Positions 3,006 to 9,969 are shown, counted from the stretch's first letter. The stretch: 32,000 bases of DNA from Candidatus Hermodarchaeota archaeon (GCA_048886185.1 JBHLKY010000026.1:1-32000), one strand, 5' to 3'. The notes: generated from the sequence alone by a model not told the origin. Numbers and translations: made by a program.

Positions 3006-3545
3006 TCAACCTGATCGGGCATTAGTCTTTCCTATGATCTGATGTGCTAACTTTGTAAAAGCTTCATCAATATTTTCCCCTGTTTTAGCTGAAGTTTCAA
3101 TAAATTCGGCATTTAAAGACTTAGCTTTGACAAATCCTTGAATAGTCTTTACACAATTAGGTACTTCATCTCTCAAATCAATTTTGTTACCAATCAATAC
3201 AACTGGTAGTTCTGGGAATGATTGAGCATAAGATTGAGCTTCTCTAATCCAAGAATCGATACCTTCCAATGTCTTTGGTTGAGTAATATCATAAACAGCA
3301 AGGGCACCCATACTTCCGACGAAATATGCCTTCATTACTTGTCTAAAAGCTGGTTGTCCCGCAAGATCCCAGATTTGCCATTCAACAGTATGCTCTGCTA
3401 TATTTATTTTTAGATAAGCAAAATCTGCACCCATTGTTGCAAGAAAATCAGCTTTAAACCCCTCTCCCATATATCTACGGCGAATAGATGTCTTCCCAAC
3501 AGCACCATCGCCAATTAATACAATTTTAAAGATATATTTCGCCAT
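3006..3545 (-). CDS. Rab-like small GTPase (Ras superfamily), 179 aa
   Basis: G1 GDGAVGKT, switch I ATMGADF, G3 WDLAGQ, YFVGSMGALAVYDIT, G4 NKID, G5 ETSAKTG. True start taken as ATG 3545 (MAKYIFKIVLIG); the 39 codons upstream in the ORF track look non-coding. Confidence 0.95.
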   Translation of the reverse strand: MAKYIFKIVLIGDGAVGKTSIRRRYMGEGFKADFLATMGADFAYLKINIAEHTVEWQIWDLAGQPAFRQVMKAYFVGSMGALAVYDITQPKTLEGIDSWIREAQSYAQSFPELPVVLIGNKIDLRDEVPNCVKTIQGFVKAKSLNAEFIETSAKTGENIDEAFTKLAHQIIGKTNARSG

Positions 3546-3685
3546 AAGGACATAACCACATGAGGAGCTTATTCTTTCATTCGAAATTAGTAATGTTTCA
3601 TTAGTTTTTAAGAGATGCCAAATTTGATATGAAAATGATAAAAATACTATAAATAAGCACAAGTTTGACTTTCTAGGTTTAAGAA

Positions 3686-4327
3686 ATGTGTTCAGGGCAA
3701 ACAGATTCTAATTTAAAAAGCGAATTGTTAGTCTTTGTCGTTGGAGCATCAGGTAGTGGAAAAGATACTGTTATGAGTAAAACTGTAAAAAATCTTCGTT
3801 TAGAACAGATACCAATCAAAATTCTACAAAGGTATATTACCAGACCCTCTGATGCGACAGAAGAATCTGTTTATGTTTCTAAGAAGGAATTTTTACAGAA
3901 AAAATCAGAAAATCAATTCGCATTATCATGGTTTATATATAATAACTGGTATGGGTGTCCAAGGGAACTTCTAGATCAGTCTCTTGACCGAGGAGAAATC
4001 GTTCTTGTGAATGTCTCTCGTAGTGTCCTTCATGAGGCTCGTAAGCAATATCCAGAATCAAAAATTATCTATATAGATGTTCATACTTCAGTTGCAGAAA
4101 GCAGAATTAAGGCTAGAGGAAGGGAGGTTTCAAATCAACTTAATGAACGCTTAACAAGAATTCATGAAAGTATTGATATGCCAATTCCTGATAAGACAAT
4201 TCATAATGATGAAGATGTTGAGAGTGCAGTTCAAGAGTTAACAGATTATCTGAAAAAAATCTATCTAGAAGCTGGACTAAAGAAATTACCTCCAGAAAAC
4301 GCTGAAAACAATTTTCGAGTTGATTAA
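3686..4327 (+). CDS. phnN: ribose 1,5-bisphosphate phosphokinase (PhnN, guanylate kinase-like)
   Basis: P-loop GASGSGKDT, RYITRP, FALSW...YG, VLVNVSR and RGRE match PhnN hallmark motifs. Confidence 0.85.
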   Translation: MCSGQTDSNLKSELLVFVVGASGSGKDTVMSKTVKNLRLEQIPIKILQRYITRPSDATEESVYVSKKEFLQKKSENQFALSWFIYNNWYGCPRELLDQSLDRGEIVLVNVSRSVLHEARKQYPESKIIYIDVHTSVAESRIKARGREVSNQLNERLTRIHESIDMPIPDKTIHNDEDVESAVQELTDYLKKIYLEAGLKKLPPENAENNFRVD

Positions 4328-4901
4328 GATAAGCCACACAATAATAAAAAAACTAGAAAGAACCCCTCAACAAAATATTGTTATCGCACTAACTGGTTTA
4401 GCTGCAATTGCTACAATTGTAATATTCTTATTAATGCGCCCTGTTGAGACAGCTTTAAAAGCTGTAAGCCCATATGGCGTAATAGAATTAGAATTTGCTT
4501 GGAATATTGAACGGATCCATCAAATCTTCGGAGATTGGACTGAAGATTTAATACTTCAAGAGTTAAACGTTACTCTTTTAGATTATGTATTCCTTATAGC
4601 TTATTCAACATTTCTTGCTAGTCTCACTTTATTAGTCTCACGAAGGTTGTTAACAGGGCAATTACAATGCATTGGATTCTATATGACATTAGTTCCTTTC
4701 TTTGCTGCCTTTTTTGATGCAATAGAAAATCTTAATCTTATTTTGATGCTATCTTCACCATCAAACTTTCCTTCATTCTCCCCTCTCATCGCTTCCATAT
4801 CTGCAACGATAAAATTCGGTTTAATTATCATTGTTGTTATTTTCATTGTAGTAGCTATCTTATGGTCATTATTTCAACGATTTTCAGATCGCACTGAATA
4901 A
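4320..4901 (+). CDS. hypothetical membrane protein (~4 TM) with polar intramembrane residues
   Basis: TTG start overlaps the phnN stop by 8 nt. Hydrophobic helices carry LDY..LIAY, FDAIEN and IKF motifs. Confidence 0.75.
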   Translation: MIKISHTIIKKLERTPQQNIVIALTGLAAIATIVIFLLMRPVETALKAVSPYGVIELEFAWNIERIHQIFGDWTEDLILQELNVTLLDYVFLIAYSTFLASLTLLVSRRLLTGQLQCIGFYMTLVPFFAAFFDAIENLNLILMLSSPSNFPSFSPLIASISATIKFGLIIIVVIFIVVAILWSLFQRFSDRTE

Positions 4902-4948: not shown

Positions 4949-5440
4949 ATGCAGCTCCCTACTCATCTCATTGCTGGTATTTTGATTCAGATCACTATCA
5001 GTGAGTTAATCCGAACCCCAACTTGGGTATCTTTTTCATTGGTGGCTATCATCACTTTTTGCTCTCATTTTCTTTTAGATCCTATTGCGAGGATTACTTA
5101 TCACCCTCCAGAAAGAATCCATGATAATTTTTGGCTTACTTGGCATATTTTTGTATATATTACTGGTTTTATCATTATTGGGCTATTTATTTGGAATTAT
5201 TGGCTTGGGATGCTTTTTGCATATCTTCCTGATTTGTGGGATTGGTATATACTACGTAATATAGCTTCAAGAAAGAATCAACCTGATTGGGGGAAAAAAT
5301 ACTATCTTCATCCTATTAGTACTAAGATTCGGAATTCTTTCTTTTCGTGGTTGCCAGATTTGACTTTAGAACAAATTGGGATTCTTCCAGAATTGAGTTT
5401 AATAATCCTGTGGTTTAGTATTATCGTTTTTTCTAGCTGA
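4949..5440 (+). CDS. small membrane protein, possible His/Asp metal-dependent membrane hydrolase
   Basis: 163 aa with hydrophobic segments and THL, SHFLLD, YH, WH, LPDLWD and LHP motifs. These recall YdjM-like membrane hydrolases, but the motif order differs. Confidence 0.65.
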   Translation: MQLPTHLIAGILIQITISELIRTPTWVSFSLVAIITFCSHFLLDPIARITYHPPERIHDNFWLTWHIFVYITGFIIIGLFIWNYWLGMLFAYLPDLWDWYILRNIASRKNQPDWGKKYYLHPISTKIRNSFFSWLPDLTLEQIGILPELSLIILWFSIIVFSS

Positions 5441-5490: not shown

Positions 5491-6756
5491 TTATTTTGGT
5501 TTTTCCAATTGATAATATTGATTTTCGGTTATGCTGGTTTTACAAAGGATTTTTCCTTTTCTAATTGTTGTGCGTGTGGGAGGTGTTGTTCGTATTGCTT
5601 CGGAAACTGACTTTACTCCATGTAAAATTACAATATTTGCTTGGGCACCAACTCTCAATCCATGGTTTTCGATTCCTAATATTATAGATGCATTTTTGGT
5701 TGTCATATCATATAATATATTGATTTCTGATCGAGAAGTCATTTTGGCAGCATGGCCAAGAAGATTGGCAACTTCCAGCATATCTCCTTTTCCAAAAGGA
5801 TAGTAAGGATCATAAATACAGTCTTGGCCGCATGTGACATTGATATTAGCTTTAAGTAGCTCTTTTACGCGTGTAATTCCAACTCTTTGCTTTTTATGAT
5901 CTAATCGTCCTTGTAAAACCATATTAGTACCTGGATTGGTAATTACATTGATATTTGCCTGTTTTACCAAGTTGATAATGCGACTTGCATAATAATTATC
6001 CTGAGCAGCAAGAGAGCATATATGATCCACTGTAACTCTACCATGATATTCTCTTTTAATTGTCTTAGCAGCAAGATATTGTAGAGTCCGTGAATTTGGA
6101 TCATCTGTTTCATCCGTATGAGAATCAATATCCACATTGAATTGTTTTGCAATGTCAAATATTATCTCGATATGGTGTTTAGAATCATCAGGGGTATATT
6201 CATTATGTGGCATCCCACCTATAAGATCAGCTCCCAACTCCATCGCCTTATACAATAACTCCTCAGTACTTTCGTCCTTAAGAATTCCTTCTTGAGGAAA
6301 AGCAACTATTTGCAGATCGATAACATCATTGTAAGCTTTTTTTACTTCAAGAAGTCCCTTTAGAGGTGTTAGGTTACCGATAGAATCTACATCTACATGT
6401 GTTCGAAAATGAGTTACTCCATATTTGATCTGTTGATCGATAACTTTACTCGCACGTTTCTGGATATCATCTTTGGTATAATTTTGTTTTACCTCCCATG
6501 TTTTTTGTATCGCTTCCCATAGAGTTCCTGATTCATTTGGTTCGATGATTTCACCAATGAGAACCTTATCAAAATGATTGTGAGGTGAAATGAAACTTTC
6601 CGTTACCAAAGAGCCTTCTGCGTCGATATGTTCTGCATCCTTAAGTTCAACAATCTTACCACCTGATTTATTTATGCTACGAATTGTACCATATTCAATC
6701 ACGATATCTACGAGTTTTCCATCACGAGTAAGAGCATTTTCAATAATTAAATTCAT
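5491..6756 (-). CDS. cytosine deaminase (CodA)-family amidohydrolase
   Basis: HNHFDK (HxH), QIVAFPQEG, DSHTDE, VDH and GQDCIYDPYYPFG align with E. coli CodA metal and catalytic motifs. Start ATG 6756 (alternative 6768). Confidence 0.9.
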   Translation of the reverse strand: MNLIIENALTRDGKLVDIVIEYGTIRSINKSGGKIVELKDAEHIDAEGSLVTESFISPHNHFDKVLIGEIIEPNESGTLWEAIQKTWEVKQNYTKDDIQKRASKVIDQQIKYGVTHFRTHVDVDSIGNLTPLKGLLEVKKAYNDVIDLQIVAFPQEGILKDESTEELLYKAMELGADLIGGMPHNEYTPDDSKHHIEIIFDIAKQFNVDIDSHTDETDDPNSRTLQYLAAKTIKREYHGRVTVDHICSLAAQDNYYASRIINLVKQANINVITNPGTNMVLQGRLDHKKQRVGITRVKELLKANINVTCGQDCIYDPYYPFGKGDMLEVANLLGHAAKMTSRSEINILYDMTTKNASIILGIENHGLRVGAQANIVILHGVKSVSEAIRTTPPTRTTIRKGKILCKTSITENQYYQLEKPK

Positions 6757-6942
6757 CCTTTCTTGCATCCCACTGTAATATGGACGAGTTCTTCTTTAAT
6801 TATTTGATTGAAAAGATGGTTTATCAGGAATACCTTGTAATGATGAATCATAATGATGGCTAGAAAAAGAATTTTAATACCTAAAAAACAATTCTCTAAT
6901 TCCTTTTCACTGGTAGAAGTGGCATAAGCAAAATCAAAAGAG

Positions 6943-7668
6943 ATGATAACTATGTCAGTAGACGAAGAAATGCTACGTCCTCCACAAAATGAGATTAATC
7001 CTGAAAACACTCCCTATCCTCCAAAATACATATATTTGGCTGATGGAACAAAGATGGTTGTTCGTCAAATCACACGAGATGAGGTTAGGCAAATCGTTCC
7101 ATTGTTTTACGATATTGTTAGACTTACAGATTTCCAGTACTACGATATTGTGGGTGCCCGAATATTAGGAGAACTCTTAGCCTATATAAATTACCGAGTT
7201 CATGATGAGTATGTTATTCTTGGCCAAGACGGGAATACTGGTGAAGTTCTTGGTCTTGTGAACTCAAGGTTAACAGTCAATCCCAAAGTAGGAATGAGTC
7301 TTCATACAATGACCTTTAAGCGAGGACTTCGTGTTGGCGCTCATCTTTTCGTTGCGAAGATGGAAAATCATTTCCTTCTTGGCAATGAAGAAGTTTATAT
7401 TGTTGCAGAATCACCCATTGGATTCCGACGGTGGATGCAAGAATTGCGACTTGAACCACGTCCCCAGATTGAGCACGAATTAGGTGGTGTACCTTCTTAT
7501 TGTCTCACAAAAGAAAATTGGGAAGGTTATGTTTTCCATGAAAGACTCTTTGGCGAACGACCTGTTCCAGAAGATCTATTAGAGACCTGTAAAAAGAACA
7601 TATTACTTCCTAAAGATGTCATTTTTCAAATCACTCGTAAAACGAAGGAAGAATGGTTGAATGCGTGA
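6943..7668 (+). CDS. GNAT-fold (acyl-CoA N-acyltransferase-like) protein
   Basis: MVVRQITRDE beta1-alpha1 pattern, a VLGLVNS strand, and a variant motif A (KRGLRVGAHLF). Its stop overlaps the thiolase start. Alternative start ATG 6952. Confidence 0.65.
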   Translation: MITMSVDEEMLRPPQNEINPENTPYPPKYIYLADGTKMVVRQITRDEVRQIVPLFYDIVRLTDFQYYDIVGARILGELLAYINYRVHDEYVILGQDGNTGEVLGLVNSRLTVNPKVGMSLHTMTFKRGLRVGAHLFVAKMENHFLLGNEEVYIVAESPIGFRRWMQELRLEPRPQIEHELGGVPSYCLTKENWEGYVFHERLFGERPVPEDLLETCKKNILLPKDVIFQITRKTKEEWLNA

Positions 7669-8842
7669 AGTTGCTATTATTGGTGTTGGGATGGGGAGCC
7701 AATGGGGTCGTTATGAAGGATCTCTTATCGAAATGATGGCTGAGGCTTCTATAGATGCGATTGATGATGCTGGAACTGACCAGATCGATGCCGTTTTTGT
7801 CGCTAATATGGGAGCAGGACGTATTAACAACCAAACAGCTTTAGGTTCTGCTTTAATTGATTATTTGAATCTTTTCCCAGCTGTTGGTACATCTGTTGAG
7901 AATGGTCCAGCTTCAGGAGGTACAGCTGCCCGAATAGGATATATGGCTATTGCTTCAGGGATTCACGACTGTGTTATGGTCACTGGTGGAGAGAAGATGC
8001 GTGTTGCTCCTGGCCCAGTTGTTACTGACTTCATTGCTACCATGTCACATCCCGAGGCTGAATATATTTATGGTATTACATTTCCTTCTCTTGGTGCGAT
8101 GCTGGCACGAATCTATTTCAATAAATATGGAGTTACATCCGAAGATTTGGCTAGAATTGCCATAAAAAATCACGCGAATGGCTTAAAGAATCCTTATGCC
8201 CATATACAACAGAAAATTACTATGGAAGGTATTTTGACTTCTCGAGAGGCTAAGCTCAACAATCCTATTATTGCTGATCCACTTCGTCTATATGATATGT
8301 GTCCTGTAACTGATGGAGCAGCTTCGATTATAATGTGCTCTCTAGAGAAAGCGCAAGAGCTTTCTAGGGAACCGTTAATCAAGTTTATAGGAACTGGCCA
8401 AGGTATGGACACCATGGCTGTACATGAACGTGAGGATCCAACGTTTCTTAAAGCAGTGAAATATGCCTCAGATCAGGCTTTTTCAATGGCTGGATTAAAG
8501 AGAGAGGACATTGATCTAGCAGAAGTGCATAACGCTTTTGAAATATTAGAGATTGCAGAACTGGAATCTGCTGGGTTCTATGAGCGAGGTAAAGCTCATC
8601 TTGCCATTCGCAATGGAGAAACTGAAATTACTGGACGTTTTCCTGTTAATCCTTCAGGAGGTTTGAAAGCTCGTGGGCACCCTGTTGGTGCAACTGGGGT
8701 AGCACAGATTTGTGAGTTAGTATGGCAACTCAGAGGAGAAGCTGGAGAGCGTCAAGTCCCAAATGATCCTAGAAATGGATATGCAGTAAATTTTGGTGGA
8801 TTTGGCAACAATGTGGTTGTGACCATATTATCTAGAGTCTGA
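7661..8842 (+). CDS. thiolase-fold protein (archaeal/SCP2-type) lacking the nucleophilic Cys
   Basis: VAIIGVG, GGEKM, CPVTDGAA, AEVHNAF and NPSGGLKARGHPVGATG are thiolase motifs. VENGPASGG replaces the usual VEx(A)CASG. Confidence 0.92.
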   Translation: MREVAIIGVGMGSQWGRYEGSLIEMMAEASIDAIDDAGTDQIDAVFVANMGAGRINNQTALGSALIDYLNLFPAVGTSVENGPASGGTAARIGYMAIASGIHDCVMVTGGEKMRVAPGPVVTDFIATMSHPEAEYIYGITFPSLGAMLARIYFNKYGVTSEDLARIAIKNHANGLKNPYAHIQQKITMEGILTSREAKLNNPIIADPLRLYDMCPVTDGAASIIMCSLEKAQELSREPLIKFIGTGQGMDTMAVHEREDPTFLKAVKYASDQAFSMAGLKREDIDLAEVHNAFEILEIAELESAGFYERGKAHLAIRNGETEITGRFPVNPSGGLKARGHPVGATGVAQICELVWQLRGEAGERQVPNDPRNGYAVNFGGFGNNVVVTILSRV

Positions 8843-8853
8843 AGGTGAAAATT

Positions 8854-9198
8854 ATGTCAGAAAACATACCAAGTGGATTCAAATGTCTGAATTGTGGAAA
8901 AATTCATTACCCTAAGCACGGTCGATGTCTTCAGTGTAAAAAGCGTAATTTCAAAGTTATTGAACTACCCTCCGAAGGATCATTAATTACCTATACAATC
9001 TTAAAAGCCCCACCCACGGGTATAGATAAATCCTCACTTCTCTTAGGTATCATTGATCTGGGAGATGTCCGTTATACAGGTCAACTAGAGGTTGAACCTG
9101 ATCAACTTAAAATAGGGATGAAACTTAAGGCTGTTAGGAAAAAAGTCCGTTTGATCGATGGTAAACCTGTATCTGGTTTTGTCTGGGTTCAGTCTTAA
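8854..9198 (+). CDS. DUF35-family Zn-ribbon + OB-fold protein
   Basis: CLNCG..YP...CLQC zinc ribbon followed by G.LITYTI and IGMKL OB-fold features; lies directly after the thiolase. Start ATG 8854 behind GAAGGTGA (alternative GTG 8845). Confidence 0.9.
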   Translation: MSENIPSGFKCLNCGKIHYPKHGRCLQCKKRNFKVIELPSEGSLITYTILKAPPTGIDKSSLLLGIIDLGDVRYTGQLEVEPDQLKIGMKLKAVRKKVRLIDGKPVSGFVWVQS

Positions 9199-9222
9199 AC
9201 ACCCAAAGGAAGTCATTTCTTT

Positions 9223-9969
9223 ATGAAACATTATCACATTAATTTATCAAAAGAAGAATTAAAGGGATCTCGACATATGTTCATCGTAGGTGACCCAGGA
9301 CGGACAGAATCGATTGCTAGACATATGCAAAATCCTCAGGAGATCACTTTCAACCGTGAATATAGAACTTTCCTAGCTTACATTGGGGAAACTCCAGTTA
9401 TTATCGCCAGTATGGGGATTGGTAGTCCATCAACAGCGATTGGGTTGGAAGAATTTGGAAAGTGTGGAATTACTACTATTATTCGAGTTGGAACTTCTGG
9501 TATTTTAAATTCCAAGGTTAAAATGGGAGATATCGTCTCTGCCACAGCAGCTATCCGTGATGAAGGGACTACAAAACAATACATCCCTCTAGAATTTCCC
9601 GCAGTAGCTCATCCAGATGTTGTCTTAGCATTACGACGAGGAGCAATCAGTCTTAATCTTCAGGATAGGTTTCATGAGGGTATTATCCATTCAAAGGATG
9701 CATTTTGGAGTGAAATCAGTGAGATGATTCCAGCTAGAAATGAAACAATTGAAAGATGGAAAATATGGAAAAGAGGCCGAGCCCTAGTTACCGAGATGGA
9801 GGTCTCTACCTTATTTGTGTTAGGAACAATAAGAGGTTGGCGAACTGGAGCAATCCTAGCTGCTATTGGTGATCTAAAGAATAACGAATTGATTATCGAT
9901 AAAAAGGCAGGCCATGTTGCATCAATTAATGTAGCAATTGCTGGAATGAAATTACTACTGAATCATTAA
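9223..9969 (+). CDS. udp: uridine/nucleoside phosphorylase (PNP_UDP_1 family)
   Basis: HYHI, VGDPGR, NREY, SMGIGSPSTAIGLEE, IIRVGTSG, AIRDEGTT, PLEFPAVA and EME motifs. Confidence 0.88.
   Translation: MKHYHINLSKEELKGSRHMFIVGDPGRTESIARHMQNPQEITFNREYRTFLAYIGETPVIIASMGIGSPSTAIGLEEFGKCGITTIIRVGTSGILNSKVKMGDIVSATAAIRDEGTTKQYIPLEFPAVAHPDVVLALRRGAISLNLQDRFHEGIIHSKDAFWSEISEMIPARNETIERWKIWKRGRALVTEMEVSTLFVLGTIRGWRTGAILAAIGDLKNNELIIDKKAGHVASINVAIAGMKLLLNH

Follow-up and report, generated by a model that had tools for sequence, protein, structure and literature searches.

A conserved trio of GNAT-fold, cysteine-less thiolase and DUF35 genes in archaea and bacteria and its possible role in oxidative pyrimidine degradation

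We analysed a stretch of 32,000 nucleotides (the window) from Candidatus Hermodarchaeota archaeon (GCA_048886185.1, JBHLKY010000026.1:1-32000), which contains adjacent genes for a GNAT-fold protein, a thiolase-like protein lacking the catalytic cysteines and a DUF35 protein (the trio). The window is AT-rich (GC 33-40%) and its closest relatives are metagenome-assembled genomes (MAGs) of Hodarchaeota/Promethearchaeota (Asgard) from sediments. An earlier note on this DNA had described four co-oriented genes, namely the trio followed by a gene for a uridine phosphorylase-like (Udp-like) protein, transcribed divergently from a gene for a CodA-like deaminase. The table of open reading frames (ORFs) and the raw sequence both agree with this arrangement (Table 1). 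The tight junctions could also be read from the sequence as claimed: an overlap of 8 nt between the GNAT and the thiolase gene, a gap of 2 or 11 nt in front of the DUF35 gene, and 24 nt in front of the Udp-like gene. The two values for the second junction correspond to a GTG (8845) and an ATG (8854) as start codon of the DUF35 gene, and the homologues favour the latter. Likewise, position 6952 is the likelier start of the GNAT gene compared to 6943, since the homologues begin at MSVDEE. The ORF table and a Pfam domain search of the cluster showed neither an HMGCS nor a KASIII gene, as the note had stated.

Table 1. Features of the window at and around the trio
Feature	Position	Strand	Assignment and remarks
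CodA-like metal-dependent deaminase, 425 aa	5491-6768	-	Amidohydro_3 / cytosine deaminase subfamily
Divergent intergenic region, AT-rich	6769-6942		Presumed site of both promoters; raw sequence
GNAT-fold subunit, 241 aa	6943-7668	+	Predicted fold; likely start 6952
Thiolase-fold subunit, 393 aa	7661-8842	+	Thiolase_N + Thiolase_C_1; 8-nt overlap with GNAT gene
DUF35 subunit, 117 aa	8845-9198	+	OB_ChsH2_C + zf-ChsH2; likely start 8854
Udp-like nucleoside phosphorylase, 248 aa	9223-9969	+	PNP_UDP_1; 24 nt after DUF35 gene
Ras/Roc/Arf-family small GTPase	3006-3662	-	PF00071, 2.8e-45
PhnN-like ribose 1,5-bisphosphate kinase, 213 aa	3686-4327	+	TIGR02322, 146 bits (cut-off 156)
193-aa protein	4320-4901	+	No Pfam/NCBIfam match; cluster w4320
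163-aa protein	4949-5440	+	No Pfam/NCBIfam match; cluster w4949
Penicillin-amidase-family protein (Ntn hydrolase), 860 aa	11440-14022	+	PF01804, 1e-169

The conservation of the gene arrangement was studied in 83 loci (71 bacterial, 12 archaeal), comprising 80 genome loci and contigs of Moorella and Undinarchaeales. The loci were analysed by ORF clustering and, independent of gene calling, by tblastn; greedy ORF calling misses genes in GC-rich loci and the counts were redone by tblastn. In the bacterial loci, which belong to about a dozen phyla, the GNAT gene is followed by the thiolase gene in 69/71 and by the DUF35 gene in 67/71 cases. For the archaeal loci the count is 10/12 for either gene, the exceptions being contig ends. 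Taxa with the trio comprise Clostridium, Moorella, Verrucomicrobiota, Bacteroidota, Thermotogota, Acidimicrobiia and others, together with two archaeal lineages. Because bacteria and archaea share this order of the three genes, the arrangement is not due to chance, and the conserved unit consists of the GNAT-fold protein, the Cys-less thiolase and the DUF35 protein. The three-component module of the earlier note is thus real, and the synteny check proposed there found the GNAT homologues tied to the thiolase/DUF35 pair almost everywhere.

The GNAT-fold protein did not match any Pfam or NCBIfam family at E <= 0.01, and a profile search of the PDB sequences with its family gave no match. The AlphaFold2 model, calculated from an alignment of 30 homologues, has a predicted local distance difference test score (pLDDT) of 93.3 and a predicted template modelling score (pTM) of 0.89. 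With this model Foldseek found 378 PDB matches at E <= 0.001 (best E ~4e-7), and the top 50 matches listed are GNAT-type acetyl/acyltransferases. VIA-align, which is independent of Foldseek, returned 3GYA with a Z score of 12.4 (root mean square deviation 2.6 over 139 residues) and 1YRE, a structure with CoA, with a Z score of 11.8. Judged from the model, the 241-aa protein has the GNAT alpha/beta fold, yet it is an orphan family by sequence. In the protein collection 2371 clusters of homologues were found at E <= 0.001, and at least 557 of the species genomes scanned contain relatives. About 40 residues are invariant, among them S119, H121, T122, R127, G128, R130, G132, H143, E156, S157, R163, W164, and H178. 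The loop R127-G128-L129-R130-V131-G132-A133 fits the Q/R-x-x-G-x-G/A motif in part, with an Arg at the position of the central Gly; R127, G128, R130, and G132 are its invariant residues. We propose that the GNAT-fold protein is the subunit for CoA-dependent acyl transfer.

Some proteins appeared to be fusions of the GNAT-fold protein with the thiolase. In two of them (P0125 and P0126) Arg-rich out-of-frame stretches were found, apparently from frameshifted assemblies, and a 660-aa protein in locus L042 is an out-of-frame extension made by the ORF calling. A genuine fusion was not found among the longer proteins, which is weak evidence in either direction.

The thiolase-like subunit matches PF22691 (6.8e-41) and PF00108 (4.4e-19), and its closest solved relatives are the archaeal acetoacetyl-CoA thiolases 7YVY (E 6e-90) and 6ESQ (E 4e-77). 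In the alignment with these two structures the motif EAACASG is replaced by ENGPASG, so that Pro83 stands in the place of the nucleophilic Cys. The acid/base Cys of the HDCF motif of SCP2-type thiolases is exchanged to Ala (HNAF); as the solved thiolase 7YVY also has HDAF, the Ala in HDxF alone is not decisive. A further difference to 7YVY and 6ESQ is an insertion of 7 residues at about 192-198. Among 33 homologues, which stem from Asgard archaea, from Undinarchaeales and from a broad range of bacterial phyla, the segment E80-N81-G82-P83-A84-S85-G86, the residues H290, N330, and H340, and the C-terminal GGFGNN are invariant. In the set of 64 thiolase homologues ENGPASG was found 55 times and HDAF/HNAF 56 times. 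The His pair is therewith kept, H340 being the oxyanion-hole His of GHP and H290 the His of the HDxF motif. Because the former active-site segment is invariant across both domains, the pocket appears repurposed rather than a relic; as far as the sequences tell, it is not decayed.

It could be argued that thiolase and DUF35 protein belong to the mevalonate or fatty-acid pathway, as an ordinary acetoacetyl-CoA thiolase with its DUF35 partner, and that the gene next to them is unrelated. The similarity to archaeal thiolases is high, and the subunit reaches 422 bits with NF004720, whose cut-off is 420 bits. We consider this explanation extremely improbable in view of the invariant exchanges of the nucleophilic Cys to Pro and of the HDCF Cys to Ala, and of the GNAT gene, which overlaps the start of the thiolase gene and is syntenic in both domains. 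Moreover, a canonical thiolase with EAACSSS and HDCF is encoded elsewhere in the same genome, on contig C9, adjoining a DUF35-SDR fusion; the thiolase of the window is therefore a distinct paralogue. On C9 (L097: 2470-5924) an MDR-type dehydrogenase, the canonical thiolase and the fusion protein of 408 aa are encoded in a row, which resembles a proposed archaeal fatty-acid synthase independent of acyl carrier protein or a reverse beta-oxidation module. PF01154, the N-terminal domain of HMGCS, gave no match in the genome, which is not taken as absence of HMGCS.

The DUF35 subunit matches PF01796 and PF12172 and thus comprises a zinc ribbon and an OB fold. All 33 homologues compared share the zinc-ribbon cysteines C14, C17, C28, and C31. 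This subunit is presumed to be the scaffold.

Modelling of the three proteins as a complex had been suggested in the earlier note as a further check. In the three-chain model, with the GNAT chain scored against thiolase and DUF35, the interface score ipSAE was 0.64 (0.64, 0.70, and 0.64 in the single runs), whereas the best of three controls scored 0.00. In the calibration of ipSAE the mark was reached by 58 of the 80 complexes with solved structure and by 2 of the 110 mismatched pairs, a calibration that is only rough for custom alignments and three chains. The runs share at least 93% of the contacts, and the pLDDT of the partners is at least 85. The predicted interface is formed by residues 184-201 of the thiolase, i.e. 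the region of the trio-specific insertion, and residues 30-35, 128-134, and 200-204 of the GNAT-fold protein. The stretch 128-134 overlaps the invariant R127-G128-x-R130-x-G132 loop, which is the place of CoA pyrophosphate binding in GNATs. Confident contacts between the GNAT and the DUF35 chain are not listed in the model. As a prediction, the model supports binding of the GNAT-fold protein to the thiolase.

The bacterial gene neighbourhoods were evaluated in the 38 loci with full flanks, i.e. at least 8 kb on either side. A cyclase-family amidohydrolase (PF04199) is encoded in 28 of these, FdrA in 28, AllG in 29, and the Mo and FAD subunits of an XDH-family enzyme in 27 and 29, respectively. 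The usual order is GNAT-THL-DUF35-AllH-FdrA-AllG-cyclase-XDH(FAD, FeS, Mo). The FdrA, AllG, and AllH homologues exceed the Pfam cut-offs; AllH is under-detected by tblastn, which found it in 6 bacterial loci compared to 35 loci in all by clustering. Additional genes encode PucR regulators (16 loci), NCS2 permeases (6 loci) and occasionally a carbamate-kinase-like AA_kinase. The Moorella operon additionally contains a CodA-like gene and an NCS1 cytosine/purine permease gene as well as two XDH sets. Because the bacterial trio is embedded in an operon for ring oxidation and ring opening, we assume that it has a role after ring cleavage, on a C3 malonyl-type fragment. In three related Bacillota MAGs (L020, L025, L083) an OAD_beta subunit of a Na+-translocating decarboxylase and a CbiM-type transporter are encoded upstream of the PucR/trio operon. 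This may point to a link to decarboxylation-driven ion pumping, but three loci are too few to build on.

With this operon in mind we considered two alternatives for the roles of the subunits. First, the thiolase-like subunit could be a retro-aldolase or lyase of the Ltp2 type, acting on a hydroxyacyl-CoA made by other enzymes and with DUF35 as obligatory partner. Ltp2 (6OK1) is itself Cys-less and dependent on DUF35 and is found among the PDB matches (E 1.6e-30), and a similar pairing occurs in BbsAB (7PXP). Nevertheless, the closest solved relatives are the acetoacetyl-CoA thiolases mentioned above and not Ltp2, the DUF35 protein is a stand-alone protein of 117 aa and not fused to a hydratase, the operon has neither a conserved hydratase (MaoC) nor an acyl-CoA ligase, and a ring-opened barbiturate would not offer an aldol substrate. 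This alternative appears rather improbable. Second, the GNAT-fold protein could be the sole catalyst, an ordinary acyl-CoA N-acyltransferase working on an amino intermediate, with thiolase and DUF35 as a silent CoA-binding scaffold. Catalytically silent thiolase-fold subunits are known, e.g. PhlA in PhlABC, and the clear GNAT fold and the loss of both catalytic cysteines from the thiolase would fit. However, ENGPASG, H290, N330, H340, and GGFGNN are invariant from Asgard to Bacillota, as would be expected for a working pocket, and a catabolic operon has no evident need of an N-acylation step, which makes the sole-catalyst alternative unlikely as well.

The archaeal genome (4.84 Mb assembly, 96% complete) also contains the partner genes. 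Contig C1 holds FdrA and AllG (~201-204 kb), the Mo and FeS subunits of XDH (~209-212 kb), and the cyclase (~214 kb), and AllH is found on contig C5 beside two pyrimidine-nucleoside-phosphorylase-like genes. The identity to the proteins of the bacterial operon is 72% for the cyclase, 53% for AllG, and 41% for FdrA; the XDH Mo subunit is 45% identical to the Moorella protein. By sequence comparison these four are orthologues of the bacterial operon genes. Between the block of FdrA, AllG and acyl-CoA dehydrogenase genes and the XDH genes of C1 there are genes for LarB-like (AIRC), LarC-like (Ni insertion) and PP-loop LarE-like proteins (L085 14668-17651; L095 1635-3651), which hints at an enzyme with nickel-pincer cofactor nearby. 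Directly upstream of the cyclase gene, an EutA-like gene was found on the opposite strand. On C5 (L098 5782-11671) the AllH homologue is accompanied by a HAD hydrolase, a double-SIS protein, and the two phosphorylase-like genes, which carry Glycos_transf_3/PYNP_C domains and are of the AMP or pyrimidine-nucleoside phosphorylase type; this neighbourhood may be a nucleoside/pentose-bisphosphate cluster.

The distribution of these genes was followed in 83 genomes of the class. In one genus the GNAT protein is found in 15/22, the cyclase orthologue in 15/22 and the AllG orthologue in 17/22 genomes (own genome counted), whereas each of the three is found in 0/61 genomes of the other 17 genera; the genomes are kin and not independent, and the result amounts to one lineage holding the set. 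A tree of the thiolases unites those of the archaeal trios in one clade (support 100/99), which is sister to one bacterial group (100/97) with the Bacillota group outside. The tree, with its root on a very long outgroup branch, fits a transfer between the domains whose direction is not established.

We now turn to the two genes that accompany the trio in the window. The CodA-like protein reaches 375.6 bits with NF005748 (cytosine deaminase subfamily), which is below the cut-off of 438 bits, and matches the E. coli CodA structures with E 2e-80. The motifs PHxH, HxDE, QEG, and GxD are kept in the alignment to E. coli CodA, and the metal ligands and catalytic residues (HxH, H214, E217, H246, D313, and Q156) are all present. 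In all 10 Hodarchaeal orthologues Asp314 is exchanged to Cys (GQDC; window 5797-5832, codons ~5818-5820). Asp314 of E. coli CodA limits 5-substituted substrates; the substrate of the CodA-like protein may therefore not be plain cytosine. By tblastn the gene adjoins the trio in 10/12 archaeal loci, i.e. in all 10 of the Hodarchaeota type and in 0/2 of Undinarchaeales, and its product is 50% identical to the CodA-like protein encoded beside the Moorella trio. The Udp-like protein stays under the cut-off of TIGR01718 (210 bits vs 280 bits), and each of its 19 best PDB matches bears the name uridine phosphorylase (best E 2e-45). Its gene is adjacent to the trio in 3/12 archaeal loci, namely in the window and in its closest relatives L004 and L008, and in 0/71 bacterial loci. 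The adjacency beyond this genome that had been envisaged for both genes is thus found for the CodA-like gene, whereas for the Udp-like gene it is confined to close relatives, and the latter does not belong to the conserved unit. The Udp-like phosphorylase is a lineage-specific addition to the operon and probably releases uracil from uridine, and the CodA-like enzyme probably supplies uracil from cytosine. The link to pyrimidine metabolism drawn in the note holds in so far as these neighbours, a CodA-like gene in archaea and Moorella and a Udp-like gene in three loci, suggest pyrimidines as the source of the substrate.

The note had further assumed that Udp and CodA are dedicated partners of the complex and that the latter removes or transfers an acyl group or a 5-substituent of pyrimidine bases or nucleosides. 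Both genes do adjoin the trio in the window, and the Cys at the Asp314 position would be in line with such a substrate. Against this, Udp adjacency is limited to 3 of the 83 loci, both Undinarchaeales loci lack nucleobase genes near the trio, and the bacterial trio is accompanied by an XDH-family enzyme, a cyclase-family amidohydrolase and an AllFGH-like carbamoyltransferase, that is, by ring-oxidising and ring-opening enzymes and not by nucleoside enzymes. Action on a substituent thus found no support, and we regard it as very unlikely.

Instead, we tentatively favour the reading that the trio is one heteromeric CoA-dependent enzyme which forms the last module of an anaerobic oxidative degradation of pyrimidines. 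Gene order, folds, motif changes, synteny, phyletic co-restriction and the supportive complex model are the observations behind it. The route would start with the cleavage of cytidine or uridine by Udp and the deamination of cytosine by the CodA-like enzyme, both leading to uracil. Uracil would be hydroxylated to barbiturate by the XDH-family molybdoenzyme, and the cyclase-family amidohydrolase would open the ring to ureidomalonate. For the next step E. coli AllFGH provides the precedent, which was found by experiment to be an oxamate transcarbamoylase that converts oxalurate and phosphate to carbamoyl phosphate and oxamate (PMC11326118). By chemical reasoning oxalurate has its one-carbon homologue in ureidomalonate, and phosphorolysis of the latter would leave malonamate. 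An AllF/G/H-type transcarbamoylase could thus yield malonamate and carbamoyl phosphate, the latter giving ATP via carbamate kinase. Finally, the trio would convert malonamate and CoA to acetyl-CoA, CO2, and NH3. By the same route thymine would lead to propionyl-CoA.

Within the trio, the uphill step would be the transfer of the malonyl group from the amide nitrogen to the thiol of CoA by the GNAT subunit. Malonyl-CoA would be decarboxylated by the thiolase-like subunit in its His-His enolate-stabilising pocket, and this downhill step would pull the reaction. A thiolase fold without cysteine can form no acyl-enzyme, and decarboxylation of a malonyl thioester could be its activity; Cys-less ketosynthases do decarboxylate malonyl thioesters. 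DUF35 would hold the assembly together, a role that it has in the archaeal thiolase/HMG-CoA synthase complex. The substrates, the sequence of the steps and the subunit roles are all inferred here. GNAT-fold malonyl-CoA decarboxylases exist, namely MCD and the GNAT-L domain of CurA, and the roles of the GNAT and thiolase subunits could therefore be swapped. These two enzymes are not among the 50 best structural matches of Foldseek and VIA-align, although a kinship is still possible.

The same module could also act on a purine or another ureide (xanthine/urate, hydantoin, or allantoin-type) and thus on a different acyl-amide fragment. PucR regulators and NCS2 xanthine/uracil permeases are found with the operon, Moorella has two XDH sets, and AllFGH is known from allantoin catabolism (PMC11326118). 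The purine fragments handled by AllFGH are, however, C2 oxalyl units, which have neither a beta-carboxyl group nor an enolisable thioester for thiolase-fold chemistry. In addition, the neighbours of the trio (CodA-like gene and NCS1 permease in Moorella, CodA-like and Udp-like genes in the lineage of the window) and the phosphorylase-like genes beside AllH in the own genome point to pyrimidines. We therefore look upon a purine or ureide substrate as unlikely, though still worth considering.

Besides the possible swap of subunit roles and the rough calibration of the complex model, several points weigh against the reading of the trio as the last module of pyrimidine degradation. In the own genome the partner genes are not linked to the trio, and AllH is situated on a third contig. 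Within the genus the co-occurrence is imperfect, 12 genomes combining the GNAT protein with the cyclase, 3 having only the GNAT protein, 3 only the cyclase, and 4 neither; these genomes are incomplete MAGs and, being related, not independent. The XDH- and cyclase-family enzymes are without a characterised orthologue acting on uracil or barbiturate, and the pathway activities rest on assignments at the level of families. The CodA family, too, includes deaminases for other substrates than cytosine, e.g. AtzC (E 1e-49). Furthermore, about a quarter of the bacterial loci with full flanks and both Undinarchaeales loci have no XDH, cyclase, or AllFGH genes near the trio, and the substrate of the trio may therefore also have other sources. 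The neighbours of such stand-alone trios (L017, L018, L022, L041, L042, L058, L071, L081) were without consistent function; in two stand-alone loci a Peptidase_C92 amidase-like gene was found upstream.

A more far-reaching version, which we deem possible but rather doubtful, is that the trio is an energy-conserving amide-to-thioester machine, in which a GNAT running in reverse and a Cys-free decarboxylating thiolase are channelled and which acts on malonamate or ureidomalonate. A fifth pyrimidine pathway, strictly anaerobic and yielding carbamoyl phosphate and acetyl-CoA and up to two ATP per uracil, would be completed by this machine, and the whole pathway would have been passed between bacteria and Hodarchaeales. 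Hodarchaeales are the Asgard lineage nearest to eukaryotes.

The remaining genes around the trio were also inspected. A PhnN-like kinase gene is situated upstream of the trio in 8/12 archaeal loci (tblastn). It is a conserved upstream neighbour and possibly provides a context of ribose-phosphate salvage; its membership in the unit is not established. The small GTPase gene is typical for Asgard genomes, and its position upstream of the PhnN-like gene is kept in related loci. The two genes without family match (w4320 and w4949), which lie between the PhnN-like and the CodA-like gene, are present in most Hodarchaeal loci according to ORF clustering. A penicillin-amidase-family gene follows about 1.5 kb 3' of the operon.

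If the proposed function is true, a protein trio of hundreds of anaerobic species would have its function. Pyrimidine catabolism would have a fifth route and, with it, its first oxidative route that suits life without oxygen. Moreover, a thiolase fold would have been repurposed without either cysteine, a GNAT would be used for amide-to-thioester transfer, and the principle of the DUF35 scaffold would extend past the mevalonate complex. As to Asgard biology, one Hodarchaeales-type genus would have a complete catabolic module that is also found in bacteria, spread over several loci, which bears on reconstructions of a heterotrophic, nucleoside-scavenging lifestyle. The window contributes the archaeal occurrence, the linkage to CodA and Udp, the split organisation with orthologous partners elsewhere, the co-restriction at the level of the class, and the complex model.

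In the literature searched we found no characterised system of the same composition, as the earlier note had presumed, and no paper joining DUF35 and thiolase with either GNAT or Moorella; subscription journals are mostly not covered, so that this is no proof of novelty. Searches for barbiturate, ureidomalonate, malonamate, and uracil dehydrogenase led only to work on the aerobic pathway and on cyanuric acid hydrolase. The introduction of a paper from 2025 on how uric acid is degraded anaerobically names only the oxidative, reductive, Rut, and URC routes for pyrimidines (PMC12507026).

Among the known systems, the trio can be compared to the archaeal thiolase/HMG-CoA synthase/DUF35 complex (6ESQ, 6ET9). 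In both, the thiolase is of the same subfamily (E 4e-77), the DUF35 protein is a small zinc-ribbon/OB protein, and the three genes are adjacent; moreover, an uphill step is proposed to be pulled by a downhill step within one CoA-sharing assembly. In contrast, the third subunit of the trio is the orphan GNAT-fold protein and not HMGCS, its thiolase has Pro in place of Cys, Ala in the HDCF motif and the 7-residue insertion that is predicted to dock the GNAT-fold protein, and its context is nucleobase catabolism instead of isoprenoid synthesis. The steroid side-chain aldolase Ltp2-ChsH2 (6OK1) and the benzoylsuccinyl-CoA thiolase BbsAB (7PXP) are likewise DUF35-dependent thiolase folds, and Ltp2 also lacks the catalytic cysteines. 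The similarity to the thiolase of the trio is much lower (E 1.6e-30 and 7e-39, respectively), and the trio has no MaoC hydratase fusion or context of steroid or aromatic CoA esters and has the GNAT-fold protein added. PhlABC, a C-acetyltransferase (5M3K), consists of an SCP2-type thiolase (PhlC), a DUF35 protein (PhlB), and a third subunit as well, but the similarity is weak and partial (E 1e-22). The third subunit of PhlABC is KASIII-like, PhlC keeps the catalytic Cys, and the enzyme acts on phloroglucinols without CoA. The trio thus lacks, by its sequence, the catalytic features that define a thiolase, and it is without the third subunits of the known complexes; on this comparison it varies the architecture of the DUF35-scaffolded thiolase complexes in a new way.

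The proposed pathway can be compared to the aerobic oxidative pyrimidine pathway with uracil/thymine dehydrogenase, barbiturase, and ureidomalonase. Conversion of uracil via barbiturate to ureidomalonate is proposed here as well, and here, too, a three-subunit hydroxylase of the XDH type would open the route. In contrast, the proposed ring-opening enzyme belongs to the cyclase family PF04199 and not to the AtzD-type barbiturases, carbamoyl phosphate would be harvested by the AllFGH-like enzyme without release of urea, and the trio would turn the malonyl part into a CoA thioester, conserving energy. With the AllFGH system of E. coli (PMC11326118) the pathway shares the FdrA, AllG, and AllH homologues, which are found in the bacterial trio operons and in the own genome; these homologues lie outside the window, and their substrate would be ureidomalonate and not oxalurate. 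The pathway would thus vary the oxidative pyrimidine route in a new way that conserves energy.

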